In this document: piece after piece, positions 878 through 31,696 of the stretch
Position numbering within the stretch: position 1 is the first letter of the stretch
Layout of the letters: every line of letters begins with the position of its first letter
Origin: Candidatus Saccharimonadota bacterium
Lineage (GTDB): Bacteria > Patescibacteriota > Saccharimonadia > Saccharimonadales > Saccharimonadaceae
NCBI GenBank assembly: GCA_001029695.1
Contig: CP011211.1
Location: 1,006,684-1,038,683, forward strand
DNA: 32,000 bases
Reading direction: 5' to 3'
Notes under the pieces: generated by a model
What the model was told of the DNA's origin: nothing
What the model saw: the letters and a program-made list of their open reading frames with translations, nothing else
The model's database searches: none
Translations under genes and position numbers: made by a program

Positions 878-2884
<2,007 letters not shown>

Positions 2885-3145
2885 GAAGGAACTGCCGATG
2901 TTTTTAATGTCAGTCAGTGAGGCCCATAAAAAAAGAAGCAGTACAATTGATGCGATAAGAACAGTCGCTTCACATATGCGACGATGCCAAAACGGTGTGA
3001 GTGTCAGTGGTTTAATTGCCCATTCCCCTATTTATTTGCTGACGTGCTTGTGGTTATTATGCCTGATTTATAGTTTGTTCACAAGAGCTAAAGTACGGAG
3101 TTTAGCATAATTGAACTATACGTCGGAGACAAGTATGTGGTTTAT

Positions 3146-8245: not shown

Positions 8246-10171
8246 TTATGCCGTACGCCGAGGCGTTAGGCGTGTTTTGTTGAGTAATAACGAGCTGATG
8301 ACTACAGATATAGAGCTAAATGCCATCGCGAGGCCAGCAAGTTCGGGGCTAAGTGTGAGGCCAAGACCAACGAAGACGCCAGCGGCAATAGGAATGCCGA
8401 GTATGTTGTAGATGAATGCCCAAAATAGGTTGAGTTTGATGCGACCAAAGGTCTTTTGACTTAGTGCGAGTGCCTGCACGACATCCTGTAAGTTGTTTTT
8501 GACGAGGACAATACCGCCCGACTCAATCGCAATATCTGTACCTGAACCCATGGCGATACCAAGATCGGCAACAGCTAGTGCGGGTGCGTCATTGATACCA
8601 TCACCCACAAAGGCGACTTTGCCGTGCTGCTGTAATGATTTGACGTGATCAGCCTTGTCACTTGGCAATACGTCGGCAATTACTTCGTCAATGCCGACGA
8701 TCTCAGCGATCGCTTGAGCTACACGCTCATTGTCACCGGTGATCATAACAGTACGGAGGCCGCGCTTTTTGAGAGCAGTGATCGCCACAGCAGATGTGGT
8801 TTTTGGTGCATCCTGAATGGCAATGAGGCCAAGTGCTTTGTTGCTTTCGCCTACAATTACGACGGTTTTTGCTTCGCGTTGTAGGCGCTCCATCTCATGC
8901 TCAAGTTTTGCGTCGAGCTTTGTCGTCCCGAGCATTTTCGCATTGCCGATGAACGCGGATTTTTTCGCTACAGTAGCCATCACGCCCTTGCCTTCGACAG
9001 CCTTAAAGTTTTTGGCTTCTGCCACTTTAATACCAAGCGCCGCGGCTTTTTCCAGGATAGCGGCCGCAAGCGGATGCTCTGAGGAATGTTCAAGTGCAGC
9101 AGCGAGTGCTAGTACGGTTTTCTCGTCACCGATAATATCAGTGACGACAGGTTTACCGAGTGTAATTGTGCCAGTCTTATCGAAGACAACAGTCTGAATA
9201 TCATTGGCGGCTTCAAGAACTTCACCGCTTTTTATGAGAATACCGAGCTTTGCGCCGCGTCCAGTACCTACCATGAGGGCGGTCGGCGTGGCTAGTCCAA
9301 GCGCACATGGACACGCAATGATAACTACGGCGACCGCAAACAGCATTGCTGTCGCAGCATCGGCGCCAAGCAGTACAAACCAGACGACAAATGTGAGGAT
9401 TGCGATGATGAGTACTGCGGGTACGAATATGTTTGATATTTTATCAACTGTCTTTTGAATTGGCGCACGACTTACTTGTGCTCGTTTTACCATATCGACA
9501 ATCTGCGCAAGTAGCGTGTCGTTACCGATTTTAGTAGCCCTAAACATAAACGTACCGGATTTGTTAATTGTCGAGCCGATCACTGCATCACCGGTTTTCT
9601 TGGTAACTGGCATGCTTTCGCCCGTTACCATAGCTTCGTCAATGGTAGACGATCCTTCGGTGATTACACCGTCCACAGCGATCTTTTGTCCTGGTTTGAC
9701 ACGCAAGATATCACCAACCACTACTTCAGCAAGCGGTACTCTAAATAGCTTGCCGTCTCTCAGCACTTCGGCGTCCTTAGCTTGCAGTCCAAGTAGTTTT
9801 TCTATGGCGCTACTTGCTCGGCCCTTCATCAACTCTTCGAACAGCTGACCGAGTAAGATGAAGGTAATCACAAATGAGGCCACCTCAAAGAATACAGGCT
9901 GATGAACGAGCATAGCATAGATACTGTAAAGATATGCCGTGCTCGTACCGATCGCGATCAGAGTATCCATATTGGCGTTATGATTCTTGAAGGCTGCCCA
10001 TGCAGTACGAATAAACGGCCATGCAGCAATAGCCATTACTGCCGTAGTGAGTAAGAACATTGTCCATGCGTGACCCGGTAGCTCAAAGCCAAATAGCGGC
10101 CGCAAGATCATCTCGAGTAGCATCGGCAGTGATACTATGAGTGAAAAGATGAAACGATTTTTGACGTTCAT
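8246..10171 (-). CDS. copA: Copper-translocating P1B-1-type ATPase (CPC) lacking an N-terminal metal-binding domain
   Basis: DKTGTIT, ACPCALGLATP, GDGINDAPAL, the YN motif (FIYNILGIP) and MAFSSISVV. The track start at 10213 lies inside the upstream gene. The ATG at 10171 (MNVKNRF) overlaps the cupredoxin stop as TAATG, so I prefer it. Confidence 0.9.
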   Translation of the reverse strand: MNVKNRFIFSLIVSLPMLLEMILRPLFGFELPGHAWTMFLLTTAVMAIAAWPFIRTAWAAFKNHNANMDTLIAIGTSTAYLYSIYAMLVHQPVFFEVASFVITFILLGQLFEELMKGRASSAIEKLLGLQAKDAEVLRDGKLFRVPLAEVVVGDILRVKPGQKIAVDGVITEGSSTIDEAMVTGESMPVTKKTGDAVIGSTINKSGTFMFRATKIGNDTLLAQIVDMVKRAQVSRAPIQKTVDKISNIFVPAVLIIAILTFVVWFVLLGADAATAMLFAVAVVIIACPCALGLATPTALMVGTGRGAKLGILIKSGEVLEAANDIQTVVFDKTGTITLGKPVVTDIIGDEKTVLALAAALEHSSEHPLAAAILEKAAALGIKVAEAKNFKAVEGKGVMATVAKKSAFIGNAKMLGTTKLDAKLEHEMERLQREAKTVVIVGESNKALGLIAIQDAPKTTSAVAITALKKRGLRTVMITGDNERVAQAIAEIVGIDEVIADVLPSDKADHVKSLQQHGKVAFVGDGINDAPALAVADLGIAMGSGTDIAIESGGIVLVKNNLQDVVQALALSQKTFGRIKLNLFWAFIYNILGIPIAAGVFVGLGLTLSPELAGLAMAFSSISVVISSLLLNKTRLTPRRTA

Positions 10172-10545
10172 TACTTGATAATGACCTTTCCGTGAAACAT
10201 GTTCATGCCACAAGAGTACTGATACTCACCCGCTTTGCTTGTGTCGATCTCGATAGCGTGCTGCTCTCCGACGGGTAGCTCTTCGTTAATGCCAAAATCT
10301 GGGAATGTAACGTGCGAGAAACAACCCGATGGATCTTTGCGATCAAAAACAATATTTGCTGGTACGCCTTGCTTTAAGACAACAGTGTTTGGCGTGTAAC
10401 CACCGCTTACTGTCACTTCTACTTTTTGTTCATTATTTTCTGACATCACTGCCTCCGTTTCACTTGATTGACGTTTACCAAAGAACCACCATAGGATGAA
10501 CCCTATGAGTAAGGTGGCGCCGATGAGTACAAATAGTTTTTCCAT
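10171..10545 (-). CDS. Membrane-anchored cupredoxin-like copper-binding protein
   Basis: An N-terminal TM helix is followed by a small beta domain carrying candidate ligands: SGCFSHV and YSCGMNMFHG (Cys/His/Met pattern). The gene lies between csoR and copA. Confidence 0.75.
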   Translation of the reverse strand: MEKLFVLIGATLLIGFILWWFFGKRQSSETEAVMSENNEQKVEVTVSGGYTPNTVVLKQGVPANIVFDRKDPSGCFSHVTFPDFGINEELPVGEQHAIEIDTSKAGEYQYSCGMNMFHGKVIIK

Positions 10546-15368: not shown

Positions 15369-17969
15369 CTATTCTTCGCCCGGTAGCTTGCGATGATGAG
15401 ACGAGGCTACTTTCTGCTCTAGAGATTTCTTTTTTGTCGGAGGTTGTTTGGTTTTGGCTGGTTTCACCACTTCTGGAGTGTACTTTATTGCATAGTTTTT
15501 GCGAGAGCCATCTATGATAGCTTGGCGGATATTCATACCCGAAGTGCTCTTATCTTTAATCAGCAATGTCTCGCCCGACAATGGTTCTTGTGATTGTATG
15601 GCAGCAATCCGCACGTAATAATTAAACGCTGGCAAGTTGGCGATTTCACCTTGCTCGACATAGGGCGCAAACATTTGCAGTAGGGCTTGCTCATCTGCCG
15701 GGTTGCCTGTTCTAAAGCAGACAATCGTGCCGACATTGGCAAGAATAATATTCACCATACGCTGATCGTCTTGTTGCGACGTAGATTGTTCGGCCATTGT
15801 GAGGAATAGTTTGTATTTACGCGACTCAGAGAGCATCTGTACGAATGACATGGTGGCAAAGTTTTGAAACTCATCGACGTACAGATAGTACGGCGTTCGT
15901 TCGGACTGCTTTACGCGAACGCGACGCAACGATGCAAGCTGGAACTTAGCGATTACCATAATGCCAAGCAGCTCCGAGGTATCTTCACCAAGGAGGCCTT
16001 TTGAGAAATTACAAATGAGGATTTTGCGATTGGTAAGAATATCATCAAAATCAATCGTTGATTTTTCTTGCTCCAAGATACGTTTGGCACTGGCCGAGAA
16101 AAGAAAGCGTCCGATTTTTGCCGTGATACCAGCCGCCATTTTGACTTGCTGCATACCTCCGGCCTTGCCAAACTCGTTGCGCCAGAAACGCTTGAGATTC
16201 TCATCGTCAAGCGAGGCGACAACCTTTTTTCGATAGGTCGGGTCGTTGATTAAGTCGTACACCGTGAACAGCGTGGCTTTTTCTTGTGTTAGTGCTGTTT
16301 GTACGGCATTACGCAACATATATTCGATACGATGGCCTCCCGAGTCGTCATCAGAAAATACCTTACGAAAAATAGAGACGATCGTTTCGGTAATGAGGTC
16401 TTTTTCGCGCAGTAATGCATCGCCATCTAGCTTTTCATCAATTTCCAGCAAGTTAAGTCCGATGGGATACGCGAGATCATCAGGATTAAAGTACACTACG
16501 TCTTTGATGCGTTCTTTTGGTACATGATTCAGCAGTGTTTCCGCCATGTCGCCGTGTGGGTCTACGACCGCCACTCCTTTACCATTTTGCATATCTTGGA
16601 CTATTTCGTACTGCAACATAGTTGTTTTGCCGCTGCCGGTGCCGCCGATAATATATTCATGGCGTTCGCGCTCTTGCTCCGTGAGGCCGATTGGCGTCTC
16701 GGTATTGTGATGAATATTTCTACCGATAATCACGTCAAACTGTTTGTTTTGTTTGAGTGATATTGGCGCTGGCAGCGTTCGACTAAGCGAAGTGATGAGG
16801 TTGTCAGTTTTGCTAACTTGGCTTGACGGGAAATGATACAGACTAGCCAGCTCCGTCGAGGCAAGAATGATCGCCGAATGACGGCGTAGCGACGGCAGCC
16901 GACGTGTGGCAGCTCGCTGGCGCAGTCTATCGACGACCGGCAATGTATGTTTTGCTTTGAGTGATTGATATGGCAGCACGCTATAGCCATCGAGCGCGGA
17001 TTTGAGTGCGGCAATGTGCTGCTTGGCCTCGGGGCTTTTGACGAGTACTCGTATATTGACTTGAAAAAGTGGATGTGTGACTTTTTGGTGCATCGTTTCC
17101 ATGAGTTCAAGTTCAAAGGCGCTCAATACTCGGGCTGGGCGATCGTGCGTAGTAATACGTGATCGTTGCTGCACGTCTCGCGTCTTGGCACTATAGTACT
17201 CCCTATGACTTGACGTCATGCCCATATAGACCTCGCCCGCTAGATCGGTCATGCTTGACGCCGCTTTGCCAAATACATTCGTAAAGCGCCCCATTGCCGA
17301 TAGTTGCTTGCCGCTGACTTGCTGCAAGATATTTTCGTTGCCGAGTATCTTGTGTGAGAGTATATCGGCTTCATGCAAACGGACAGGCGTGGCGATAAGC
17401 TGCAATACAATCTCTTCATCATCAGTCAGCTGCGTCATTGCGCCAGTTACATAGCCGAGGGGGTCATGTTGCTCAAATATCGAGGTGAGTGTCAATGGCA
17501 GTACGTAGTGGCCAGTCTCCCTAAACTCAATAACACTGTACGCGCCGTCCGTATTGCGCTCGACCTCTTTTACCTTTGAATCTGGTATATACGAGGTAAT
17601 GGCTTTTTGTATGTTTGATGAGCGGTTTTTTTCAATTTGGAGCAGATAGCGGATACCGTCTTTACGAGTTGAAACGATCTCAAAACTCATCACTGGCGAG
17701 CGATTGATGAGTCTATCTTTGGGTGATCGAGCGGCACGCATACCGTGAAGTACTGAGAATAGTTGTTCGGTTGCCTCTGGCGTTTTGGCGATGTTTGACG
17801 GTGGTGTAATCTCTAGCCACACCATGTCACGACCCAGCAGAAAGCGACGGTTCACAATAGTACGAACAACCAAAAAGATACTCACGCCCGCAACTATCGA
17901 GGCGATAATAACTAGAGCTGTAGGCCAGTACCGTATGGCGGCATCGACGTAATGGGATTGGGCGTCCAT
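15369..17969 (-). CDS. virD4: Type IV secretion coupling protein (VirD4/TraG-type ATPase)
   Basis: N-terminal TM helix (WPTALVIIASIVAGVSIFLVV), Walker A IIGGTGSGKTT and Walker B YYLYVDEFQNF. AGGAG lies 7 nt upstream. The gene overlaps the CHAP gene by 58 nt. Confidence 0.85.
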   Translation of the reverse strand: MDAQSHYVDAAIRYWPTALVIIASIVAGVSIFLVVRTIVNRRFLLGRDMVWLEITPPSNIAKTPEATEQLFSVLHGMRAARSPKDRLINRSPVMSFEIVSTRKDGIRYLLQIEKNRSSNIQKAITSYIPDSKVKEVERNTDGAYSVIEFRETGHYVLPLTLTSIFEQHDPLGYVTGAMTQLTDDEEIVLQLIATPVRLHEADILSHKILGNENILQQVSGKQLSAMGRFTNVFGKAASSMTDLAGEVYMGMTSSHREYYSAKTRDVQQRSRITTHDRPARVLSAFELELMETMHQKVTHPLFQVNIRVLVKSPEAKQHIAALKSALDGYSVLPYQSLKAKHTLPVVDRLRQRAATRRLPSLRRHSAIILASTELASLYHFPSSQVSKTDNLITSLSRTLPAPISLKQNKQFDVIIGRNIHHNTETPIGLTEQERERHEYIIGGTGSGKTTMLQYEIVQDMQNGKGVAVVDPHGDMAETLLNHVPKERIKDVVYFNPDDLAYPIGLNLLEIDEKLDGDALLREKDLITETIVSIFRKVFSDDDSGGHRIEYMLRNAVQTALTQEKATLFTVYDLINDPTYRKKVVASLDDENLKRFWRNEFGKAGGMQQVKMAAGITAKIGRFLFSASAKRILEQEKSTIDFDDILTNRKILICNFSKGLLGEDTSELLGIMVIAKFQLASLRRVRVKQSERTPYYLYVDEFQNFATMSFVQMLSESRKYKLFLTMAEQSTSQQDDQRMVNIILANVGTIVCFRTGNPADEQALLQMFAPYVEQGEIANLPAFNYYVRIAAIQSQEPLSGETLLIKDKSTSGMNIRQAIIDGSRKNYAIKYTPEVVKPAKTKQPPTKKKSLEQKVASSHHRKLPGEE

Positions 17970-18523
17970 GGCTGCGCTCCTATTTTATTGTGAATAAACG
18001 TGTAATGTACGGCCGCTTCTTTTGAAAACGTACGCTGCGAGACAACATTGAGCGTCGGAGCGTTCATCTCGGATATTGTCCACTCACCGCTAACTGTATT
18101 GACCTTGATAACATATGCCACATGGCCGTAGCCACCGCCGCCAACATCGGTTTGGAATACCGCACCGACAGCGGGTGTATTATTGACGGCGTAGTTTTGT
18201 GCGCGTGCATAATCATCCCACGTATTTGCATTACCCCATGTATTCGGTATCGGGCTACCTGCCCATTGCCGCATGGCATATGACCACCACGTACAGTTGC
18301 CCCATGCGTAGGTGTTACCAATCATCACGCCGCCCATATAGAAGCCTTGGGTTTCGGCGCTCTTTGCGTCAGGCGTATTCGCTAGCCAACTGAGGGTTGG
18401 CATCCCCATAGAGAACACGGCAACGACTGGCAAGCTGACGACAACAAACATCACTACAACGATCAGGGCAAGGATGCGCTTGATCTTGAAGCCTACAGCA
18501 AATAGCGCCACCTCTTGGTTCAT
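17912..18523 (-). CDS. Membrane-anchored CHAP-domain peptidoglycan hydrolase (functional VirB1 analogue)
   Basis: TM anchor ILALIVVVMFVVVSLPVVAVF. The CHAP signature is YAWGNCTWWSY, followed by GGYGHVAYVIKV (catalytic Cys and His). The start overlaps the VirB4 stop as ATGA. Confidence 0.85.
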   Translation of the reverse strand: MNQEVALFAVGFKIKRILALIVVVMFVVVSLPVVAVFSMGMPTLSWLANTPDAKSAETQGFYMGGVMIGNTYAWGNCTWWSYAMRQWAGSPIPNTWGNANTWDDYARAQNYAVNNTPAVGAVFQTDVGGGGYGHVAYVIKVNTVSGEWTISEMNAPTLNVVSQRTFSKEAAVHYTFIHNKIGAQPWTPNPITSMPPYGTGLQL

Positions 18524-20289
18524 GATGAATATAGCTCCGTCGGGTCTGTCGTGATGAGGGGATGTTCCTTTTCACTGGCCACCACCTTGACTGCGACGTG
18601 GTTTTGATCGGCAATCAGCAAGGCATCACCTCGTTCGCAGGTTAGTAGAAAGCTCTGCTCATATTCACTCAAATTAAACTCACTCACGACGCCTTTAATC
18701 GTCGTCGTATCTTGTCGCATAAGAATACGTAGCGCACTTTGTGAGGCAATGGCACGGCCGTAGTCACTCTTCAGAAAGTCGTTGGCTTGTTGCGAGATGA
18801 TTGATACACCAAGGTAGTATTTACGAGCGCGGCGCACCAGCCCAGCCACAAATCTCGCGGATTCTTCATGTTCAAGCAGTAGCCAGCCCTCATCTATGAT
18901 GAGAAGCCGTTTTTCGGGCTTGGCCATCACCTGATTTTTCACAAAGTTAGAAATAATCAGCATCATAATTTGGCGCATACTCTCTGGCAAGTCTTTGATA
19001 TCAAAGATAACGAGGCGGTTATCTAGCTCGATGTTGGTCTGCGAGTTAAATACCTCTGCCAACGAGCCAGAGATGTACCTTTCGAGTCGTTCACACAGTT
19101 TCATTTGCCCGAGGTCTTTTAGCTCGACATACAAATCTTCAAGTAATGACTGTTGATCTTTGGCTTTTTTGTAAATCTTGAGGATCGCCTTATCAACGGC
19201 GGCTTTTTCGCGTGATGACAAACCCTCTGCCATGAGGCCAATGACTTCGGTGAGGTCTTGGGTGTGTTCGGACAGGTCGTGTATCTTGTGGAATGTCGTA
19301 GCGAGATCGAATGGGTTAATCTTTTGTTTGCTCTTGGCCGAGAGTTTGATATACGTACCGCCAACCGACTCCGTCAGTCGCTTGTATTCTCGCTCTGGGT
19401 CGATGACGATGACGCGTGTACCCTGCATGAGCTGGCGCAGTATCTCAACCTTGGTGGTGTAGCTTTTGCCAGCACCAGACTGGGCGAACGTGATGGAATT
19501 GGCATTGTGGAGACTAAATCGATCAAGGATTACTAGCGAATTGTTTGATTTGTTGACACCATACAAAATACCACTCTCTTGCACGAGCTCAGACGACATG
19601 AATGGAAATGTGAGCGCTGCGCTAGAACTATCGAGGTTTCGTTTTTGCGCTAATTGATCTTCACCGCGCGGTAAGATTGACTGCAAGGCTTCGAGCTGTT
19701 GGTAGCGTGCGACTTTTGAGTAAAACAATCGTGCCGACATGGTGGCCTCAAGTAGCTTTGTAATCTTGTTTAGCTCTTCTAGTGTTTCGGCACGTAGGCT
19801 AATATAGATGGCCATTTGAAACAGCTTTTCTTGGCCACGCTGGATTTTGTCACGCAGCTCAATGGCTGATTCTAGTGGGTCGGTGATCTCCGACCCGACG
19901 ATCTTGCCAGCTCGCATCATCGCTCGCTTGGTACTCTCAAGCTCGGTAATCTTGCGGTGGAGTTTCGGTAGTGCCGACAAGGCACTGACTTCGTGTACGT
20001 GATAGCTGATGTCGGTATCGTGATTGAAATTGACAAGGCTATCCATCCAGCCAGAGTTAGCCACGAACGGATAGCCCGAGATGTAGAGCGTGCGCATATA
20101 CACACCGTCGATATGCAGATAATCGACATTTTCTTCTAGCCCAGCGTAAGACAAGATGTCGATGGCATCTTGCTCGCCAAACGTAATATCAAGTTCTTTC
20201 TGTCGATCAATCCGAGCCTGCTTGCGCCTTTGAGCTGGCGCGAGTAATTTTTGCTGGACGCTACTGAGCTTTTTTCGTACGTTTTGCAT
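18520..20289 (-). CDS. virB4: VirB4-type T4SS ATPase, C-terminal two-thirds including the ATPase domain
   Basis: Walker A FAQSGAGKSYT, Walker B LLIIDEGWLLL, and the upstream conserved block DGVYMRTLYISGYP typical of Gram-positive-type VirB4. It overlaps the upstream ORF by 29 nt in a different frame. Confidence 0.85.
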   Translation of the reverse strand: MQNVRKKLSSVQQKLLAPAQRRKQARIDRQKELDITFGEQDAIDILSYAGLEENVDYLHIDGVYMRTLYISGYPFVANSGWMDSLVNFNHDTDISYHVHEVSALSALPKLHRKITELESTKRAMMRAGKIVGSEITDPLESAIELRDKIQRGQEKLFQMAIYISLRAETLEELNKITKLLEATMSARLFYSKVARYQQLEALQSILPRGEDQLAQKRNLDSSSAALTFPFMSSELVQESGILYGVNKSNNSLVILDRFSLHNANSITFAQSGAGKSYTTKVEILRQLMQGTRVIVIDPEREYKRLTESVGGTYIKLSAKSKQKINPFDLATTFHKIHDLSEHTQDLTEVIGLMAEGLSSREKAAVDKAILKIYKKAKDQQSLLEDLYVELKDLGQMKLCERLERYISGSLAEVFNSQTNIELDNRLVIFDIKDLPESMRQIMMLIISNFVKNQVMAKPEKRLLIIDEGWLLLEHEESARFVAGLVRRARKYYLGVSIISQQANDFLKSDYGRAIASQSALRILMRQDTTTIKGVVSEFNLSEYEQSFLLTCERGDALLIADQNHVAVKVVASEKEHPLITTDPTELYSS

Positions 20290-20917
20290 GGTCTGCTCCT
20301 TTCTCGATGAGAGCGGTATGAATAATCTGCAAGGCCTGTTCGGTTAGCGGCTGCAACTTGGCCTGTGTCGGACTGTAAAAACTATAGAACAGGTCGAGGA
20401 CTTCGAGACTATCGAGCCGTTCGGCGTGCATACCGAGTCTGCTCATTCCCTTGATAATGATATCCATCTGTATCTTTAGCTGTTCGGACACGAGGTCAAA
20501 GTCTATTTTGCCGTGGACTTTATACGGCAAAACAATGTAGAAATGACGAGTCAGAATCTTGTTGTCAGTGATTAGCGAGCGGATAAACTCATCATAGTTT
20601 TGTAACTGGGTGCGATAGATCGGTACAGTTTCGCCGTCAAGCCGGTCTGCTAATTCTTCAAGGTATTTATCCATATCAATCTCACGTGTTCGGACAAGGA
20701 TTTGCAAGCTGGTTCCGACCGAGTTCAGAAAGCTCTCGTAGGTTTCGATGATGGCGTCTTGTTCGTATTCGCTACGTAGTTCAAAGTTGAGCGACGACAC
20801 TTGCAAGATTGCTCGGTACTCATTGTTCGGTAGCATCAAAATGCCATCGCGTACTCCCTTGAGTGCGATCTGATTACGTGAGCTGGTTTTATTCTTCGAT
20901 TTCCGTAAGCCTAACAT
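20261..20917 (-). CDS. virB4: VirB4 N-terminal domain encoded as a separate ORF (split gene or frameshift)
   Basis: GVRDGILMLPNNEYRAILQVSSLNFELRSEYEQDAIIETYESFLNS matches the N-terminal block of Gram-positive VirB4 proteins. I prefer the ATG at 20917 (GGAGG 5 nt upstream) over the track start at 20980. The ORF ends inside an A6 run shared with the next ORF. Confidence 0.7.
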   Translation of the reverse strand: MLGLRKSKNKTSSRNQIALKGVRDGILMLPNNEYRAILQVSSLNFELRSEYEQDAIIETYESFLNSVGTSLQILVRTREIDMDKYLEELADRLDGETVPIYRTQLQNYDEFIRSLITDNKILTRHFYIVLPYKVHGKIDFDLVSEQLKIQMDIIIKGMSRLGMHAERLDSLEVLDLFYSFYSPTQAKLQPLTEQALQIIHTALIEKGADHAKRTKKAQ

Positions 20918-21398
20918 GCAGGCCTCCTTTCTTTCCGGTTTCAAAACGGACTTTTGCGGCTGGGTTCTCAATCGTGGCAAGGACTCTGGCGGTCGTCGGT
21001 ATATCGAGCTGATTGCGCGATACTTGCTTAGTGACGACGGTGACGGTTTTTTCTGGCTGTTCTTGGTCTTTTCGTGCCGGGTAGTTTTCTCGCAGTGTGC
21101 TGACGTTTTTGTTAAACAGATAGTATTTCGGGCGAAGATTGTAGCGAAGTATGGTGACGAGCCAAAACGCCACCAGCTTACCCTTGATACGGATTGCTAG
21201 AATACAGAAGATCATCCCTACTACACCCATGATGACGTACTTGTAGATTGCACTGCCTATGAATGGCGGCAGCGCCACAAAGATGCCAGCTGCCGCAAAT
21301 ACTGGCACGATGAGTAGTAAGATTTGCGAAAAGCCAAGGTTGCCAATAATACGATCTTCGACAGTGGTGACTTGTGCTGGCACAACGGTCATTTTCAT
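20889..21398 (-). CDS. PrgI/TcpE-like small membrane protein (VirB3 analogue)
   Basis: EDRIIGNLGFSQILLLIVPVF followed by a second TM helix. It sits immediately upstream of VirB4, as in Gram-positive T4SS loci. Its start overlaps the upstream stop as ATGA. Confidence 0.65.
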   Translation of the reverse strand: MKMTVVPAQVTTVEDRIIGNLGFSQILLLIVPVFAAAGIFVALPPFIGSAIYKYVIMGVVGMIFCILAIRIKGKLVAFWLVTILRYNLRPKYYLFNKNVSTLRENYPARKDQEQPEKTVTVVTKQVSRNQLDIPTTARVLATIENPAAKVRFETGKKGGLHVRLTEIEE

Positions 21399-22894
21399 AG
21401 CGTCTTATCCTTACTGGTATTCTTCGGCAGAGTCGAGGGCGCAGGCACACGAGTAACTGTCACTTTGGGCGCTTCGTAGGTCGTGCCAGTTGGCTTGCTC
21501 TTTGGCGTCGGCGTTGCGGAATGGGTAATCTCGGCCGTACCTTTCTTGTTTGCATAACTAATACTTTGTGTTTTGCCGCTGCGGACTGCGTGCGATTCGA
21601 CACTTCTCATGGCTCGTGTTTTCTTGGCACTATCTGTTTTGGAGCTAATTGCACTGGTGGCCGCTTTTGTCTTGCCAGTCATATAGCTGACGCCGTTGAT
21701 GAACTGACCGCCGAGCTTCCTCATGTTGCGCGTCCCCATACTGACATAACTAAATTGCATCATGACGCTCTGCGTCTTGAGTAGCAGCAGAATGGTGGCA
21801 ATGCCCGTCACCATCGCCATCAATGTGTCGGGTACGGCGTTCTCGCCTGAAGCTGTCGCCATACCAGTGAATAACGAGGCCGACAGCTGGAGTATTACTA
21901 CATGGACGAATAGTACGAAGATCGTTGTCAGATAAGTCTTAAAGGTGGTTTCGGCAAAATCACGACAGCCCGGAATCAGCCAAACGAGACTAATCAATGG
22001 CGCGAGAACTGCGCCGATGTAGAGCGTCACCAGACGCATGACGTAGTAGACGAGTAGCACGATCGAACAGATGACAAATCCAACCATGATTAGCAGTGCC
22101 GCAACACCCAGGCCAGAAGTTTCCTCGACCACTTTCATCAGAGTATCCCAGACTGACGACGAGCCAGAGATTAACCCGACAGCCTTGATGAGTGCATTAG
22201 ACAGTGCAATAATACCGTCAATCAAGAAGATCGAGCTATTCATCAGAACGAATATTATCGCTACTCTGGGGAAAAGGTGCTTTGGCTCAACTTCATCGAA
22301 GCCTAGTGCTGACGCACTCATGACATGAAAGCCAATCAGCACCAAGACAAGGATAAATAGCACGTTGCCTATGCCAACCATTGCCAGCCAGAAGTTAAAT
22401 ACTGTCTGATTACTGGCCATTGTCGGCGTGGAGGTAGTAAAGAAATCTAGTGCATCGAGAAATGGCTTGGCGACAGCATTGATAATCTGCCCCAACAGAC
22501 CTGTGACGGCTTTAATAATCATATCCAGCAGGCCGTTACTTTGCTCCTCTTCTTTGATCGCCTCTAGGCTCGGAAGCGTAGCGTTGCCAGAGTTCGTTGG
22601 CGTGCCATAGGAGTTCGTTAGGATAGTCGTCAGTGTGATGGCCGCCAGCACAATAAGAAGGCCGAGCAGAGCTTTTTTGAGTATCTCTTTGGCGTGTTCC
22701 ATCTGGTCGGGTTTGCCGCTGCTGGTGATATACAGATAGCCAGATTGCACGATAAAGAACACGCAAGCTAATCCTGCTAATCCAGACAAAATCCGCACGA
22801 CAGGCATGACATACTCACGCATCGAGGTGATCGCCGTCGAAGTATCAGCGAAGAATGTTAGCCCTGATAGTAGGGTGTTCTCAAGCCCCCACAT
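21395..22894 (-). CDS. Polytopic VirB6-like T4SS membrane protein with an N-terminal pilin-like module
   Basis: At least 7 hydrophobic helices. Residues from about 30 to 95 (VVRILSGLAGLACVFFIVQSGYLYITSSGKPDQMEHAKEILKKALLGLLIVLAA) are clearly paralogous to the adjacent pilin. The C-terminal tail is basic and disordered. Confidence 0.7.
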   Translation of the reverse strand: MWGLENTLLSGLTFFADTSTAITSMREYVMPVVRILSGLAGLACVFFIVQSGYLYITSSGKPDQMEHAKEILKKALLGLLIVLAAITLTTILTNSYGTPTNSGNATLPSLEAIKEEEQSNGLLDMIIKAVTGLLGQIINAVAKPFLDALDFFTTSTPTMASNQTVFNFWLAMVGIGNVLFILVLVLIGFHVMSASALGFDEVEPKHLFPRVAIIFVLMNSSIFLIDGIIALSNALIKAVGLISGSSSVWDTLMKVVEETSGLGVAALLIMVGFVICSIVLLVYYVMRLVTLYIGAVLAPLISLVWLIPGCRDFAETTFKTYLTTIFVLFVHVVILQLSASLFTGMATASGENAVPDTLMAMVTGIATILLLLKTQSVMMQFSYVSMGTRNMRKLGGQFINGVSYMTGKTKAATSAISSKTDSAKKTRAMRSVESHAVRSGKTQSISYANKKGTAEITHSATPTPKSKPTGTTYEAPKVTVTRVPAPSTLPKNTSKDKTL

Positions 22895-22903
22895 AGCAGC
22901 TTG

Positions 22904-23245
22904 TTACCCTCCAAACGCCTGTTTTGCGATGGTAGTAACGATCTGTGCCAGCACGAACGCTGCAATGACAATGGCCAGACCAATCGCCGACCACGTCAGC
23001 GTGCGCTTTGCTTTGTCGAGCTGTTCTGGGTTGCCCGAGCTGGTGATGTAGGTGAATCCACCGACAACAAAGAAGCCGGTCGCAACGAGACCAGCCAAGC
23101 CCGCAAGGACGGTAATGACATTTCTAATAAAGCTCTCTACGTTACTCACGCCAGCCGTTTGTGCAAACGCTGGCTCCGCCAAAAATAACGGCAGCCCAAT
23201 CGCGACGAATGCTGCTATAAAATAGTATGTCTTTTTCATTCCCAT
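22904..23245 (-). CDS. T4SS pilin-like protein (VirB2/TrbC analogue)
   Basis: The signal peptide ends AFA|Q. It is followed by two hydrophobic helices flanking YITSSGNPEQLDKAKRTL. The protein is 113 aa and is the first gene of the T4SS operon. Confidence 0.7.
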   Translation of the reverse strand: MGMKKTYYFIAAFVAIGLPLFLAEPAFAQTAGVSNVESFIRNVITVLAGLAGLVATGFFVVGGFTYITSSGNPEQLDKAKRTLTWSAIGLAIVIAAFVLAQIVTTIAKQAFGG

Positions 23246-24915: not shown

Positions 24916-25542
24916 GTGTATTATTTGATTAAACGTTATCGCACCTGGATTTTATTTGGAACAGTATCTACTGTAAGCATCGCTTTATGGCTCATGACAC
25001 TATCCGGGAGTGTTTCATCGATGTACCAATTCTTTCCTATACTCGGGGTTCTTGCATGGACAACGATGTGGGTTCACTATGTCGCAAGTTCTATCGGCAA
25101 ACCTGCTAATAGCAAGCGATTCGCAACGTGGACTGGACATATAGTTCTATTGTTCATAGTGATACATCCCAGTATTTTTTTGGTGCAACGCTTCCTCGAC
25201 ACCGGCTTACTCCCTCCAGAAAGCTACATCAGCTACGTTGGCTCCTATCGCGCATGGGCAGTGGCAATCGCGATAGCTGCGCTGGCAACGTTCTTGCTCT
25301 ATGATGTCCTAAAACATTTCCGTAGTAAGCGTATCGTACATGACATATGGTCGTATGTTGGTCTACTTCAAGCCTGTGCTATGGCGGCAATTTTTATACA
25401 CGGCTTAATACTTGGAATAAGTATGATCAGCGGCTACTTCATGCTGTGGTGGACATTCTTAGGGATATTGCTTGCTCCATGTCTTGTATTGCAAGTCGTT
25501 CGTGATTTTAAAGTATCCGATCGAACAAAAACAGAAGTTTAA
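24916..25542 (+). CDS. Polytopic membrane protein with 5-6 TM helices and several intramembrane His residues; function unknown
   Basis: The hydrophobic helices contain WVHY, GHIVLLFIVIHP and IFIHGL. It begins with a GTG and the exact start is uncertain. It is convergent with the last DUF305 gene, and their stop codons overlap. Confidence 0.6.
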   Translation: MYYLIKRYRTWILFGTVSTVSIALWLMTLSGSVSSMYQFFPILGVLAWTTMWVHYVASSIGKPANSKRFATWTGHIVLLFIVIHPSIFLVQRFLDTGLLPPESYISYVGSYRAWAVAIAIAALATFLLYDVLKHFRSKRIVHDIWSYVGLLQACAMAAIFIHGLILGISMISGYFMLWWTFLGILLAPCLVLQVVRDFKVSDRTKTEV

Positions 25543-26192
25543 TAACCCCAGTCTTTTTGCCACTGCTTCATCTGCTCGATTTCTATTGTCTGCGCGCTAA
25601 TAACGGCACTGGCGAGGTCTTTTATCTCTTGGTGTTTTGCATTGGTCGCGGCATATTGAGACATTTCAACTGCTTGCTCGTGGTGAAGAATCATTTGCTT
25701 CAGAAACTCTTTATCGTATGCTTCACCTTTTAAGCCTTGTAATTTGTTTTGCATCTCTATCATATCTCCGCCCATGTCCATGTCAGCACCGCCATGGCTA
25801 CCATGACCACCACTCATCGTTTCTTTATAGCTCCATGCTTTTTGCCATGCTCGCATTTGCATGATCTCTGCACTCTGACTCTGCACGATATTGCTCGCGA
25901 GTGTGCGAATCTCATCATGGGCAGTAACTGCCATTGCTTGTTCTGACATGTTCAGAGCACCTTCATGGTGAGCAAGCATGTCGGCAATGTACGCCTCATC
26001 AAATGCGTCTCCTTTTAAGTTTGCATATTTATTATCGCTTGCGGGTTTTTGTTTCTTTTCATCTGCTGTCGTGTTGCTTGTCTGTAGCGCCCCTTCAGGT
26101 ACTGGTTTTACTGAAAAGACTACAAAATACCAAACGGCAGCTGCGGCAATCGCAAGTACGACAATCACAGTGATAAATATTTTATTCTTCAT
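25539..26192 (-). CDS. DUF305-family protein with two repeats and a signal anchor
   Basis: DEAYIADMLAHHEGALNM and DKEFLKQMILHHEQAVEM, each followed by I(E/M)QM..WQK.WGY. An N-terminal TM helix is present. Confidence 0.85.
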   Translation of the reverse strand: MKNKIFITVIVVLAIAAAAVWYFVVFSVKPVPEGALQTSNTTADEKKQKPASDNKYANLKGDAFDEAYIADMLAHHEGALNMSEQAMAVTAHDEIRTLASNIVQSQSAEIMQMRAWQKAWSYKETMSGGHGSHGGADMDMGGDMIEMQNKLQGLKGEAYDKEFLKQMILHHEQAVEMSQYAATNAKHQEIKDLASAVISAQTIEIEQMKQWQKDWGY

Positions 26193-26202
26193 ATAACCTC
26201 AT

Positions 26203-26838
26203 CTAATTTCCTTTAGCTTGTAATTGTTTCATTGTCTGTATTTCCTCGGTTTGTTTTTTCACGGTCTTGTTCTTGATATTTATCATCTGACCAAACTGCA
26301 TGCCCTTTAAATACTCTGCGTTTGATATTTCATTTGCACCCTCATGATGGGCAATCATCAAGCGCAAGAATAGCTTATCTACCGAACTGCCTGTAGCAGA
26401 TTCAAGTTCACGCAGATCACTGAGGTTTGCCATCCCAGGATGAGTCGGGTACATATCGTGGCCTTCCATCTCAGGAAAATCAGACAGATTGAAATATGTC
26501 TCTTTCCACTCGGTAAGCCAGTTAATGTACTGTTTGGTGTCACTCGTTAGCTCATCGCTGATACGTACCGCCAGTTGGCGAACTTTGTCGTCGCTCGCAT
26601 TTTTCTTCGCGATGTCCGCCATCTGGATACCCTGCTGATTATGGACGATCATTTTCTTCGCAAAATCAGTATCCATGTAGTTATGCTCGTTTGGGTTAGC
26701 CGGTTTCTCACTTTTACTTGCTGACGGCATCGGCTTACTTTCTGGAGCGGAAGCTGACTGGTTTTGTGAAAACCACCAGCCTATTGCTGCTGCTCCGACT
26801 GCGAGCACAATAATCGTTCCTACAACTATCTTTCGCAT
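26203..26838 (-). CDS. Divergent DUF305-like protein with a signal anchor
   Basis: DTDFAKKMIVHNQQGIQM (HN in place of HH) and DKLFLRLMIAHHEGANEI. An N-terminal TM helix is present. Confidence 0.75.
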   Translation of the reverse strand: MRKIVVGTIIVLAVGAAAIGWWFSQNQSASAPESKPMPSASKSEKPANPNEHNYMDTDFAKKMIVHNQQGIQMADIAKKNASDDKVRQLAVRISDELTSDTKQYINWLTEWKETYFNLSDFPEMEGHDMYPTHPGMANLSDLRELESATGSSVDKLFLRLMIAHHEGANEISNAEYLKGMQFGQMINIKNKTVKKQTEEIQTMKQLQAKGN

Positions 26839-26855
26839 ATTTTTACCTCCTTGGC

Positions 26856-27374
26856 CTATCGTGCAAGCGGTTCGGGGCTTTTGCCCAGATTACGCGCAAC
26901 ATAGTCTTCTATTTTTTGCTGATCATACGCCAGTAATGTTTCACTCCTGCGCCATGAGCTTAATTCTATCGGCGATTTATTGGTTGCTCTTGGTGCAAGT
27001 ACTATCTTGGTTGGTTGAAACTTTGGATTCGCAAAAGGTGCTGACAAAAGTCGGGTCAATTTATCAACTTGGTCTTTCGGTAGGCTTGGTTGGTATGAAA
27101 TGTAGATTCCCCCATGCTCCATATTGTGTACCAGTTGATCGTCGCGGACTTCTGTATCGTACACGCCCCACGAAACAGGGTTTGCGTGAGCACCAGAAGT
27201 TGGCGGCTGGTCGCCGCCATACTTCTTGCTGTCCACATGTTCACGGCCGTGATCACTTTGTTCAACCCCTGGACGTGGTGGTTCCGGTGGTTTGTTTGCC
27301 TTTGCAGCAATGATTGCTCCAGTAAAACCAAGAGTAACAACTGCCAATACAGCGGGCAGGGTTCTAATTTTCAT
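26856..27374 (-). CDS. DUF3105-family membrane-anchored putative metal-binding protein
   Basis: PPTSGAHANPVSWGVYDTEV..LVHNMEHGGIYISYQP matches the DUF3105 pattern. An N-terminal anchor is present. Confidence 0.75.
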   Translation of the reverse strand: MKIRTLPAVLAVVTLGFTGAIIAAKANKPPEPPRPGVEQSDHGREHVDSKKYGGDQPPTSGAHANPVSWGVYDTEVRDDQLVHNMEHGGIYISYQPSLPKDQVDKLTRLLSAPFANPKFQPTKIVLAPRATNKSPIELSSWRRSETLLAYDQQKIEDYVARNLGKSPEPLAR

Positions 27375-28041
27375 AGCCCCAATCTTTTTGCCACTGCTTC
27401 ATTTGCTTGATTTCTTGTGTCTGAGCAGAAACGACAGCTTTGGTAAGATCTTTTAGCTCTTCGTGCTGTGCGTTTTTCTCACCAGGAGCAGCCATGTCGA
27501 TAGCCGACTGGTGGTGCATGATCATCTGCTCGATAAAAGCTTTGTCAAACTCATCACCCGTCTTTCCTTCCAGGGCGCTGTTCATACCAGTCATCTCATC
27601 CATCATACCCATAGCACTGTGATCCATCATATTGTCGGCACTTGTCGATGGATAACCCCATTCTTTTTGCCAAGCCGTCATCTGACTAATCTCACCCTCT
27701 TGAGCCGAGATGATGTCGTTCGCCATATCTTTCAACTCTTGGTGCTTGGCATTTTTCTGTGCTAGCTTCGCCATATCAACAGCACCTTGGTGGTGGGCTA
27801 TCATATTGGCGATGAAATTACGGTCGTATGTCTCACCACTCATGGCTGAGTACTGTTTGTACGTAGCACTATTGGTATCAACGAGCGAATCATTGTTTTT
27901 TGAACCATCCATATCCATGCCGGACATGCTGTCCGTATTTGATTTAGTCGTGTTGCCACGCAGGCCGTAGTAGAGCGCGCCGCCAGCGACTGCCAGCACG
28001 AGCACAACAGCAATGATAGTAAATAATTTCTTATTGTTCAT
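27364..28041 (-). CDS. DUF305-family protein with two repeats and a signal anchor
   Basis: DRNFIANMIAHHQGAVDM and DKAFIEQMIMHHQSAIDM. Both repeats end in QM..WQKEWGY or WQKDWGY. Confidence 0.85.
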   Translation of the reverse strand: MNNKKLFTIIAVVLVLAVAGGALYYGLRGNTTKSNTDSMSGMDMDGSKNNDSLVDTNSATYKQYSAMSGETYDRNFIANMIAHHQGAVDMAKLAQKNAKHQELKDMANDIISAQEGEISQMTAWQKEWGYPSTSADNMMDHSAMGMMDEMTGMNSALEGKTGDEFDKAFIEQMIMHHQSAIDMAAPGEKNAQHEELKDLTKAVVSAQTQEIKQMKQWQKDWGYEN

Positions 28042-28090
28042 AGATACTCCTAAGTTAGCTATTTAACGGTATTTTCGTAAATAGCTACTC

Positions 28091-28468
28091 TCAAGCGCGA
28101 AAGACTGCGAGCTTTATATAAGCTGGCGTGCTATCAGGAGGTGGTTCTCTATCTAGGGCAGCTCTTGTCTCTTGACCGTGTTTTTCTTCAAGGGCCAAGA
28201 GGGGCGATGTTTGGAACTGAACATAGAATGGAGGTTGTGGCTGGTCGTCCTCGTCTTTGTCAGCCTCCTCGATAACCTCATCTTTGTGAAGAGTTGCTGC
28301 GGTACAGGCAGTAAAACAACTTGACGAACTCGTCTGATGAGATGCGCCGCCCATTGAGTGTCCCATGCTGCTCATAGGCTGTAATGCGGCTGCATGTATA
28401 CCTAACGACAGTACGCTAAGTACTGTGAGCATAAATACGGAAACAACTCCATGGAAGACTCGTTTCAT
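28091..28468 (-). CDS. Secreted Met/His/Cys-rich hypothetical protein; possible copper binder
   Basis: A signal peptide is followed by MSSMGHSMGGASHQTSSSSCFTACTAATLH and then an acidic stretch. The gene lies inside copper operon 2. Confidence 0.5.
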   Translation of the reverse strand: MKRVFHGVVSVFMLTVLSVLSLGIHAAALQPMSSMGHSMGGASHQTSSSSCFTACTAATLHKDEVIEEADKDEDDQPQPPFYVQFQTSPLLALEEKHGQETRAALDREPPPDSTPAYIKLAVFRA

Positions 28469-28507
28469 ATCTCTATTTTACCGTACTTTGCTCTAAGCGT
28501 CATATTT

Positions 28508-29455
28508 CTAGTAGTTTGCCTCGCTGTAGTGAGGGAAGAAATCTTGATGGAGACTATCGCTACTCAACCCGTTATCTTCTAATTGCTTGCCGAGTATTTC
28601 TACCATTGGTTCGGGGCCTGATATGAAGACCTGAGATGAATTGATATCTGGCACGAGCTCAGTGAGCTTTTCGGCAGTAAGCGGTTCGCCGATGACGTAC
28701 TGGACTCTAAACTCTGGGTGGCGTTTGCTTGCCTCGTCGAACTCCACTTTGAATGGTAACTCATCAGTTCGACCATTATAAATAAGCGTTGCCGACACCG
28801 GCTGTCCGCTATGACCCCGTGCTTTTAACATGCTATAAAACGGCGTAATGCCGATGCCACCTGCGATGAACACTAACGGCTTATCACTTTCTTGCCAAAC
28901 GAAATCGCCGTCCGGCTGCTCAATGAGTTGTACTTCATCTCCAACTGCAAGAGCGGCCAACGCTTGCTTAAATGTCGTGCTGGTAACACGAGTGGTGACT
29001 TGAATAAAACCATCATGTGGCGTTGATGAAATCGTAAACCATCGCTTTGTACCTTCTTCATCGGGGTTATCGTGAGGGATTTCAATGCGGATGAACTGCC
29101 CCGGAGTCCACGACAAAGGTTGGTCAGCGGTGAAACGAAATGCCCAGATATTATCTGTCAGGTGTTCTTTTTCCTTTAATCGGAGCGTCGCTGTTGTCGG
29201 AATATGGTGGTGATGTTCATGACCCAGATGATGATCGGTATACTGCTCAGGGTTCTTATCGAATAGCTGAACGCATGTGGCGCAACACAAATAAATTCGT
29301 TTACCATCAACATCTCTGAAATGTCCGAGTTTTTCAGCCTCTGCTGTATCAATAGCGTCACCTGTTACTGGGCAGACGGCCATACGATCTACTGGGATAT
29401 CGGCTGCCTCACTGTCGTGATGATGATGGTGTTCATGTTCGTCGTGGTTGTGCAT
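28508..29455 (-). CDS. His-rich YHS/TRASH-type metal-binding domain fused to a ferredoxin-NADP reductase-like FAD/NAD(P) oxidoreductase
   Basis: HEHHHHH, then CPVTGDAID..DGKRIYLCCATCVQLFDKNPEQY (YHS-like). This is followed by RWFTISSTP (RxYS-type FAD motif) and FIAGGIGITPFYSML (NAD(P)-binding). GGAGG RBS present. Confidence 0.8.
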   Translation of the reverse strand: MHNHDEHEHHHHHDSEAADIPVDRMAVCPVTGDAIDTAEAEKLGHFRDVDGKRIYLCCATCVQLFDKNPEQYTDHHLGHEHHHHIPTTATLRLKEKEHLTDNIWAFRFTADQPLSWTPGQFIRIEIPHDNPDEEGTKRWFTISSTPHDGFIQVTTRVTSTTFKQALAALAVGDEVQLIEQPDGDFVWQESDKPLVFIAGGIGITPFYSMLKARGHSGQPVSATLIYNGRTDELPFKVEFDEASKRHPEFRVQYVIGEPLTAEKLTELVPDINSSQVFISGPEPMVEILGKQLEDNGLSSDSLHQDFFPHYSEANY

Positions 29456-29464
29456 ACTACCTCC

Positions 29465-31696
29465 TTATAATTTTATTCGTCGTAGGAACTGTGCATTGAT
29501 GGCGACAATAATCGTTGAAAGTGACATCAGGACTGCGCCGAGTGCTGGCGAAAGAACAAACCCAATTCCCGAGGTAACACCAGCCGCCAGTGGGATAGCG
29601 AGGGCGTTGTAGCCGGTCGCCCAGGCAAGGTTTTGCAGCATCTTGCGGTAGGTAGCTTTTGAAAGCGTGACGATCTTTGCTACGCCTCGTGGGTCGCTGC
29701 TTGCTAGCACGATTCCAGCCGACTCAATCGCCACATCCGTGCCCGCACCGATCGCGATACCAATATTAGCCTGCGTCAGCGCTGGCGCATCGTTCACGCC
29801 ATCACCAACCATGGCAACCCGGCTCCCATCTGCCTGTAACTTCTTGACTGTTTCGGCTTTATTCTCCGGCAGGACTTCGGCAAAGTACTCTTTAATACCG
29901 AGTTCTTTGGCTACCCAAGCAGCCACGCCTTTGCTGTCGCCGGTCAGCATAGCAACGCGTTTGCCCATATCATGCAGTCGGGCGACGGCTTCTTTGGACT
30001 CTTCGCGGATAACATCAGCCAGCATGATTGCGCCGAGAACGGTCTTATCCTCGACGACATACACGACCGTTTTTCCATCAGTTGAGGCTTCTTCTGCCGC
30101 TTTTTGTAACTCGCTATCAAGCTTTAGTTTCAGTTCTTCAAGTAACCTCGGACCACCCACATATACCATTTTGCCACCGGCTTTAGCTCGTACACCACGG
30201 CCAGAAAGTGCCGAAAAGTCAGTGGCGTGAGTTTCCGGCACATTTTGACCGTGTGCATACTGGAAAATTGCTTTTGCAATCGGATGCTCTGATTCGCGTT
30301 CGAGTGCGGCGGCAAGACTCAAGGTACGACCTTTGTCTTTAGCGAGGATATCAACCACACCTTGTTCACCCTTAGTGAGTGTGCCGGTCTTATCAAATAA
30401 CACGACATCTATATTGCGTGCTGATTCGAGTGCCATTCGTTCACGTACCAGCAGCCCATTCTTTGCCGCTAGTGTGGTAGAGATAGCCGTGACGAGCGGA
30501 ATAGCTAGACCCAGTGCATGTGGACAGGCAATCACCAGTACCGTGACAACTCGCTCAAAAATAAACCCTGCCGACGCACCAGCTATCCACCAGCCTATCC
30601 ATGTGAGGAGCGCTGCACCAAGCGCAACAAATGTGAGATAAAAGGCCGCTTTGTCTGCGAGTACCTGCGTCTTTGACTTGCTCGTCTGGGCGTCCTCGAC
30701 AAGTTTCATAATGCCAGCCAGCGCCGTGTCACCGCCAACTTTCGTGACTTCAATCGTCAAGGCGCCGTTTGCATTGATCGTCCCACCGATAACCTCAGCT
30801 CCGACTATTTTCTTCACCGGCCTTGACTCACCAGTCAGCATTGATTCATTAACTTCAGACTCGCCCTTGATAACTTTTCCATCTACCGGAACCTGCGCGC
30901 CAGGGCGAACCAGGACGGCATCACCTACTTTAAGCTGGCTCACTGAGACCTTGCGGCTTTCCCCATGTTCAACCAGCTCTGCTTCATCGGGTAGCAGCTT
31001 GGCAAGCTCATTGAGTGCGCCTTGTGCACTTTCCACCGACGCCATTTCCAGCCAGTGGCCGAGCAGCATAATCGTTACCAATGTCGCCAGCTCCCACCAG
31101 AAGTCCATACCACTGACGAGCTTGAGCGTCACGAGGCTGCTATAGATAAACGCAACGGTAATCGCCATTGAAATCAGCGTCATCATACCCGGCTGCCGAG
31201 CTGCAAGCTCCGCTTTTGCACTCTTGAGGAATACCAAGCCACCGTAAAAGAATATAATAATGCCAAACACTGCCGGAATGTATTCGCTACCAGCAAATGC
31301 CAAATGAACCCCAAACCAACTCTGTACCATCGGTGAAAATATCAGTGTCGGAATGGTCAGGAGGAGGCTAAGCCAAAACTTCTGCTTAAACATGTTTGGA
31401 TTGTGGCCAGCATGCTTGTCGTGATCGTCATGTTGGTCGTGCGATGATCGTTTAGTCTTCTCAAGCGCCATGTGGCATTTCGGACACATACCCGGTTTAT
31501 CTGATGTGACATCTGGATGCATTGGACAAGCGTATACGCTGCCATGCGCGGTGGCCGATGGATTACTATGGTCATGATCACCGTTGGTTTCGTCTTCCGT
31601 ATCATCATCAGATACTAGATTCATATTACATTTCGGGCATACCCCCGGCTCATTGCTGATAACCTCTGGATGCATCGGACATGTATATTTTGCCAT
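29465..31696 (-). CDS. copB: P1B-3 (CopB-like) copper P-type ATPase with a CPH motif, two N-terminal CPMHPE..CPKC modules and a His-rich linker
   Basis: YTCPMHPEVISNEPGVCPKCNMNL and YACPMHPDVTSDKPGMCPKCHMAL, then HDQHDDHDKHAGH. Core motifs are ACPHALGLAIP, DKTGTLT, GDGVNDAPAL, GYN and MSLSTIIV. Confidence 0.9.
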   Translation of the reverse strand: MAKYTCPMHPEVISNEPGVCPKCNMNLVSDDDTEDETNGDHDHSNPSATAHGSVYACPMHPDVTSDKPGMCPKCHMALEKTKRSSHDQHDDHDKHAGHNPNMFKQKFWLSLLLTIPTLIFSPMVQSWFGVHLAFAGSEYIPAVFGIIIFFYGGLVFLKSAKAELAARQPGMMTLISMAITVAFIYSSLVTLKLVSGMDFWWELATLVTIMLLGHWLEMASVESAQGALNELAKLLPDEAELVEHGESRKVSVSQLKVGDAVLVRPGAQVPVDGKVIKGESEVNESMLTGESRPVKKIVGAEVIGGTINANGALTIEVTKVGGDTALAGIMKLVEDAQTSKSKTQVLADKAAFYLTFVALGAALLTWIGWWIAGASAGFIFERVVTVLVIACPHALGLAIPLVTAISTTLAAKNGLLVRERMALESARNIDVVLFDKTGTLTKGEQGVVDILAKDKGRTLSLAAALERESEHPIAKAIFQYAHGQNVPETHATDFSALSGRGVRAKAGGKMVYVGGPRLLEELKLKLDSELQKAAEEASTDGKTVVYVVEDKTVLGAIMLADVIREESKEAVARLHDMGKRVAMLTGDSKGVAAWVAKELGIKEYFAEVLPENKAETVKKLQADGSRVAMVGDGVNDAPALTQANIGIAIGAGTDVAIESAGIVLASSDPRGVAKIVTLSKATYRKMLQNLAWATGYNALAIPLAAGVTSGIGFVLSPALGAVLMSLSTIIVAINAQFLRRIKL

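Follow-up and report, generated by a model that had tools for sequence, protein, structure and literature searches.

Two adjacent genes, not one frameshifted gene, encode VirB4 in a Saccharibacteria T4SS locus

A T4SS cluster in Saccharibacteria (CP011211.1) encodes its VirB4 in two overlapping open reading frames (ORFs), and the overlap contains a run of six A's. Here, the window is the whole 32,000-nt stretch of this contig that was analyzed, the N-ORF is the upstream frame, and the ATPase ORF is the downstream one. Does this layout reflect a gene broken by a 1-nt insertion, a sequencing error in a homopolymer, or a VirB4 that is genuinely bipartite? The first-pass annotation had left all three options open, and our analysis bears out the last of them, as both ORFs are under selection and are separate in 81 of 81 related loci. 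A monoderm-type T4SS cluster surrounds the two ORFs, with PrgI/VirB3, VirB6, cell wall hydrolase, and VirD4 genes all identified by Pfam. Its features are as follows.

22904..23245, minus strand: VirB2/TrbC-like T4SS pilin gene, the first of the cluster (Pfam T4SS_pilin, 1.2e-13; TrbC, 8e-12)
21395..22894, minus strand: VirB6/TrbL-like membrane protein with an N-terminal pilin-like domain (Pfam T4SS_pilin, 2.4e-9; TrbL, 3.2e-5)
20889..21398, minus strand: PrgI/VirB3-like protein (Pfam PrgI, 2.4e-6)
20261..20917, minus strand: TrsD-like gene, a free-standing VirB4 N-terminal module of 218 aa (the N-ORF; NCBIfam profiles, identity to the fused protein P0122, and dN/dS)
20296..20302, minus strand: Shine-Dalgarno (SD) sequence AAAGGAG of the ATPase gene, within the EKG codons of the upstream gene and 6 nt from the ATG (read from the sequence)
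20270..20275, minus strand: A6 run inside the 29-nt overlap, encoding KK in both frames, incidental (sequence and relatives)
18520..20289, minus strand: VirB4 ATPase subunit of 589 aa, in which the P-loop ATPase domain follows the latter half of the N-terminal domain (the ATPase ORF; Pfam, NCBIfam, and PDB)
17912..18523, minus strand: CHAP domain cell wall hydrolase in the VirB1 role (Pfam CHAP, 3.4e-17)
15369..17969, minus strand: VirD4-like coupling ATPase (Pfam TrwB_AAD_bind, T4SS-DNA_transf, and TraG-D_C)

The order of these genes recurs in three other loci (L001, L082, and L083). Overlapping junctions with embedded SD sequences run throughout the operon: the PrgI/VirB3-like and TrsD-like genes also overlap by exactly 29 nt (20889..20917, minus strand), a strong GGAGG lies 6 nt ahead of the ATG of the TrsD-like gene at 20917, and 4-nt overlaps occur at 21395-21398 and 18520-18523, with none at 22894/22904.

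At the junction, the minus strand reads ..GAC CAT GCA AAA CGT ACG AAA AAA GCT CAG TAG, with the stop codon of the N-ORF at 20261-20263. The N-ORF has 218 aa when counted from its ATG (the longest ORF opens with TTG at 20980), and the ATPase ORF starts with ATG at 20289 in frame +1 relative to the N-ORF. The initial description of a 29-nt overlap in different frames, at 20261..20289, therefore holds, as do the letters quoted for it and the position of the A6 run. Deleting one A from the run gives a single ORF, ..RTKKLSSVQQKLL.., and its 798 aa agree with the joined protein of about 800 aa that had been predicted for A5. We found no support for the further claim that VirB4 is split exactly at the homopolymer, in the sense that the run caused the split. 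The two ORFs would be joined by any 1-nt indel in the +1 overlap, wherever it fell, A/T runs of 6 or 7 bases number 25 in the window, and the split occurs in relatives both with and without such a run; the association of the split with a homopolymer is therefore no more than expected by chance. The run itself encodes Lys-Lys within a basic tail.

That the two ORFs are halves of VirB4 was also correct, since they are collinear on a single profile, the 752-position NCBIfam model for VirB4 CD1110 (NF045971). The N-ORF matches positions 11 to 172 (E = 1e-12), and the ATPase ORF matches positions 199 to 733 with 350 bits, above the curated cutoff of 325. In Pfam, the ATPase ORF matches P-loop_TraG (5.6e-24), AAA_10, and DUF87, and its translation includes the motifs GAGKS and IIDEGW. 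Searches of the N-ORF against Pfam with E values of up to 10 returned only noise, and a sequence search of the PDB returned nothing meaningful; a precomputed annotation gives PF26593 (TraC-like) for a protein identical to it. Residues 238 to 577 of the ATPase ORF match the VirB4 C-terminal domain in PDB entry 4AG5 (E = 4e-38), and the ATPase ORF thus also holds ~240 N-terminal domain residues. The cut falls within that domain and not where the N- and C-terminal domains meet. The complete VirB4 N-terminal domain is not found on the ATPase's own polypeptide, as its first ~190 residues are encoded separately in the window and in all 81 loci.

We modeled an artificial fusion of the two products with AlphaFold2 (pLDDT, 87.9; pTM, 0.84). 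Confidence was low at residues 1 to 9 and at ~200 to 245, a segment that spans the split. The top PDB matches of the model were the full-length TrwK/VirB4 chains of R388 (TM score, 0.67; E = 1e-29), and the overall VirB4 fold, including the N-terminal domain, was recovered for the joined single-chain sequence rather than for a two-chain complex. In the alignment, the split lies in a variable linker between two conserved blocks, where the split clade has ~40 more residues than fused homologues.

Comparison with orthologous loci had been proposed beforehand as one check on the three options, with orthologues split at the same place counting in favor of two genes, and such orthologues were found. 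With the joined protein as the query, we obtained 3,094 homologues, and sizes and coverage were taken from the best 120 of these (from NCBI, ENA, JGI, and Logan). All 120, at 90 to 100% identity, are 582 to 593 aa long and cover just 70 to 73% of the fusion query. We also scanned one genome per species and recovered 80 Saccharibacteria loci with an ATPase identity of 79 to 100%. Junctions were read in 81 loci, comprising 79 of the 80 scanned loci (L052 had no upstream DNA), the complete genome CP060232, and the window. The two ORFs are separate in all 81, and a single ORF occurs in none.

The junctions differ in detail. The overlap is 4 nt (ATGA type) in 27 loci, 8 nt in 21, and 11 nt in 8; overlaps of 1, 29, and 32 nt occur in five loci each, junctions of 0, 17, 26, 41, and 56 nt were seen once each, and three loci have short gaps. 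Relative to the upstream gene, 46 loci have the ATPase in frame +1, 34 have it in +2, and 1 has it in 0 (in frame past the stop). Start signals recur across these junctions: an SD-like motif lies 5 to 9 nt ahead of the ATPase start in 78 of the 81 loci, and 76 loci start the gene with ATG and the other 5 with GTG. The motif is supplied by a conserved feature of the upstream gene, its terminal ..EKG.. codons (GAGAAAGGAG). A runs of 5 or more are absent from the junction in most split loci and present in only a few close relatives. One locus with the same 29-nt overlap (L005) has AAGAAAG in place of AAAAAAG and is still split.

These comparisons bear directly on the idea that a recent 1-nt insertion in the homopolymer knocked out VirB4, either as fresh pseudogenization or as a phase-variable switch of the T4SS. 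Such an event would fit with the restoration of a single ORF by the removal of one A and with the presence of fused VirB4 in distant Saccharibacteria. It is contradicted by the fixation of the split in all 81 loci, at 79 to 100% ATPase identity and saturated synonymous divergence, with junctions and frames that differ among them, and by the lack of any close relative with A5 and a single ORF, whether among the best 120 proteins or the 81 loci. Pairwise dN/dS against the window is 0.025 to 0.08 for the N-ORF and ~0.02 for the ATPase, with dS ranging from 0.3 to >2, that is, to saturation. Both genes are under strong purifying selection and have long been maintained in the split state; the upstream ORF (dN/dS of 0.03 to 0.08) is therefore not decaying. 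Neither relaxed selection nor an intact single ORF in close relatives, as a frameshifted pseudogene would have, was found, and we regard a recent inactivating insertion as extremely improbable.

Copies that have truly decayed look different, as they carry internal nonsense codons. Two loci in the scan have such codons in TrsD-like and ATPase genes that are well conserved in other respects; these are probably decaying copies or assembly errors:

L045, positions 2549, 2579, and 3487: nonsense codons TAA, TGA, and TAG, affecting both genes
L057, position 4153: nonsense codon in the ATPase gene (CAA>TAA)

We considered stop codon recoding for L036, L045, and L057 and rejected it. The stops are a mixture of TAA, TGA, and TAG that align with L, K, Q, and S, which points to nonsense mutations or errors and not to recoding.

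Homopolymer indels are a common artifact of some sequencing technologies, and an error in run length, from sequencing or assembly and confined to one record, would also produce two ORFs from one. The exact ATPase protein is present on eight contigs, however, and an independent short-read ENA assembly (ERZ27254846, contig k141_2678548, MEGAHIT type) has the junction identical base for base, including A6. As the relatives are all split, including the best 120 homologues, the probability of such an error is negligible.

A third alternative would keep VirB4 in one piece at the protein level: programmed +1 ribosomal frameshifting or transcriptional slippage at A6 could yield a full-length fused VirB4, possibly beside the two separate products. 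The sequence A AAA AAG in the overlap is slippery in principle, and the 798-aa protein is exactly what a +1 slip at this site would produce. Against this, the A run is not conserved (it is interrupted in L005 and absent from most split loci), the frame relation is inconstant across loci (+1, +2, and 0), and conserved start signals (SD and ATG) belong to the downstream ORF itself. A run of six A's is also short for efficient slippage by RNA polymerase. We found no stimulatory RNA structure in the region 20195..20310 of the minus strand (z = -0.19; 94 of 200 shuffled sequences fold at least as well). The marks of a programmed frameshift (a conserved slippery site, a constant frame, the lack of an independent start, and an RNA structure) were not found, and this mechanism is very unlikely. 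There is only a slight chance that in one sub-lineage, in which A AAA AAG lies inside a +1 overlap of 26 to 41 nt (the window, L002 to L004, and L006), occasional +1 slippage would add a minor full-length VirB4 and make this a three-product locus. In a milder version of this idea, VirB4 would have undergone fission or fusion within Saccharibacteria, with the ..EKG.. motif recruited as a Shine-Dalgarno sequence. Nothing that we observed requires a minor fused VirB4 made by rare slippage at A6.

Within the same sub-lineage, L002, with an ATPase 99.7 to 100% identical, differs from the window by one C>T change in the overlap. The change is nonsense in the N frame (CAG>TAG) and synonymous in the ATPase frame (CTC>CTT), so that it is the ATPase frame that is conserved across the overlap. 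Translation of the ATPase from its own start would be expected to leave this pattern.

Taking these observations together, we consider it very likely that this Saccharibacteria lineage makes VirB4 as two polypeptides from adjacent genes, with translational coupling between them probable. The first product would be a 218-aa TrsD-like protein equivalent to the first ~190 residues of canonical monoderm VirB4, and the second would be a 589-aa subunit in which the P-loop ATPase follows the remainder of the N-terminal domain. Translation of the ATPase ORF would start from an SD and ATG of its own, which lie within the 3' end of the upstream gene; given these signals, ribosomes could either initiate independently on the ATPase gene or reinitiate after translating the upstream gene, and no frameshift would be needed. 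Judging from the sequence, a fused product is probably not made at all. The two products presumably associate noncovalently into a VirB4-shaped protomer, which would dock at the membrane on PrgI/VirB3 and power the T4SS.

A scan for promoters and terminators in the region from 15 to 24 kb yielded nothing bearing on the junction. Promoter-like sites numbered 10, compared to 11.2 in shuffled sequences. Terminator-like sites were about twice as frequent as expected (16 versus 8.9; standard deviation, 2.8); they include a 5-bp GC stem at 20219-20246, on the mRNA strand.

To place the two-gene form in the wider family, we searched exhaustively through representatives clustered at 50% identity and tallied architectures for the best 150. 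About 75 of these have room for an N-module ahead of the ATPase part and 24 do not; a stand-alone N-module cluster of 210 aa also occurs in the wider family. Among fused forms, the closest are P0122 (734 aa; 52% identity) and P0124 (727 aa), both assigned to Candidatus Saccharibacteria by NCBI and both in an operon with the same order as in the window (pilin-VirB6-PrgI-VirB4-hydrolase-VirD4). The N-ORF is 39% identical to residues 1 to 186 of P0122 and 33% identical to P0126. A fused form is also present on Bacillota plasmids other than those of Planococcus, for example, as an 831-aa protein in Bacillus mycoides. Compared with single-chain monoderm VirB4 (NF045971; including fused Saccharibacteria proteins such as MCY4088768.1), the two ORFs share the domain order and the fold and cover positions 11 to 733 of the 752 in the profile; the difference is that the single-chain protein is one polypeptide of 727 to 781 aa and the window encodes two. 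A single-chain VirB4 is also viable, given that the same operon in more distant Saccharibacteria contains a fused gene. We observed a single fused VirB4 in two such loci, L082 (5001-7205; 734 aa) and L083 (5001-7184; 727 aa), where the hydrolase that follows is an M23 peptidase in place of the CHAP hydrolase.

The two-gene VirB4 is real, ordinary for the phylum, and already known. The N-ORF product is small and shows homology to the VirB4 N-terminal part, and the N-ORF lies immediately upstream of a VirB4-like ATPase gene. TrsD has been described as a remote homologue of the VirB4 N terminus that is the most abundant T4SS component in Patescibacteria and is usually found beside virB4 (Quinonero-Coronel et al., Microb Genom 2025, PMC12102498). 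That study counted 2,272 TrsD homologues, of which 1,664 occur in association with VirB4. The TrsD copy of Southlakia epibionticum ML1 is listed there as essential (PMC12102498); the Patescibacteria T4SS has been reported to be essential for epibiotic growth (PMC12102498, PMC12857230). As in the window, the published system has a VirB4 N-terminus homologue of ~200 aa beside a shorter ATPase. The operon partners (a VirB2-like pilin, VirB6, and PrgI/VirB3) and the phylum are also the same. With TrsD beside virB4 in that study (PMC12102498), the arrangement is already published, and the window, which shows no substantive difference from it, is an instance of it. In PMC12102498 as consulted here, the words "split," "fission," and "two genes" do not appear, and neither the anatomy of the overlap and SD nor the fused variants in some Saccharibacteria are described. 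Our search of the literature for VirB4 that is split or encoded by two genes found no paper treating split VirB4 as such; the relevant work is filed under TrsD.

A similar layout exists on monoderm (MPF-FATA) conjugative plasmids of the pGO1-type subclass, where a small TrsD/TraD gene lies upstream of a TrsE-type ATPase gene (DUF87/VirB4). The N-ORF matches the NCBIfam TrsD/TraD model NF041427 with an E value of 9.1e-9 and 35 bits, far below the cutoff of 200. In tblastn searches, it matches annotated TrsD genes on Planococcus plasmids with an identity of 22% and E values of 1e-6 to 2e-6. On the Planococcus maritimus plasmid NZ_CP101821, TrsD (1181-2215) is followed by a DUF87 protein (2230-4101). 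This TrsD differs from the N-ORF in being longer (344 aa) and in its low sequence identity (22%), and a 14-nt gap, with no overlap, separates it from the ATPase gene.

For annotation, flagging these ORFs as a frameshifted pseudogene or "correcting" them into a single gene is to be avoided, and "TrsD-like VirB4 N-terminal subunit" is the name that the upstream ORF should carry. The natural cut point of VirB4 lies within the N-terminal domain, in a disordered linker past residue ~200, and it may aid construct design for the Patescibacteria T4SS.

The scan also gave several observations on the T4SS loci themselves. The ATPase subunit is unusually conserved, at 79 to 100% amino acid identity across 80 species representatives despite saturated synonymous sites, and the TrsD-like subunit, at 50 to 98% identity, evolves about twice as fast. 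Several Saccharibacteria genomes and MAGs hold two diverged copies of the T4SS ATPase locus. L005 and L041 both lie on JBATAC010000002.1 (892 kb), ~80 kb apart; their ATPases are 93% and 88% identical to that of the window, and both copies are split. Other MAGs with two copies are CAZNEX01 (L002 and L004) and DJJF01 (L029 and L059). Three near-identical T4SS loci, L042 (CAZAMC010000010.1), L001 (CP060232.1), and L070 (OY969576.1, 1.9 Mb), are in records labeled "Gammaproteobacteria," "Candidatus Nomurabacteria" (the name given for P0063), or "uncultured bacterium" with a 1.9-Mb chromosome. Misbinning, mislabeling, or transfer could account for these labels.

No tRNA genes were found in the window. 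A metal-handling cluster (24916..31696) adjoins the T4SS. The genes noted in this cluster, and a second P-type ATPase outside it, are as follows.

29465-31696: heavy-metal P-type ATPase with HMBD repeats
28508-29455: FAD/NAD oxidoreductase
25539-26192, 26203-26838, and 27364-28041: three paralogous DUF305 genes
8246-10213: second P-type ATPase

Between about 10000 and 14000, the window has a G+C content of 0.41 to 0.43, compared to 0.47 to 0.51 elsewhere, and contains only short ORFs; this region may be foreign or rich in noncoding DNA.
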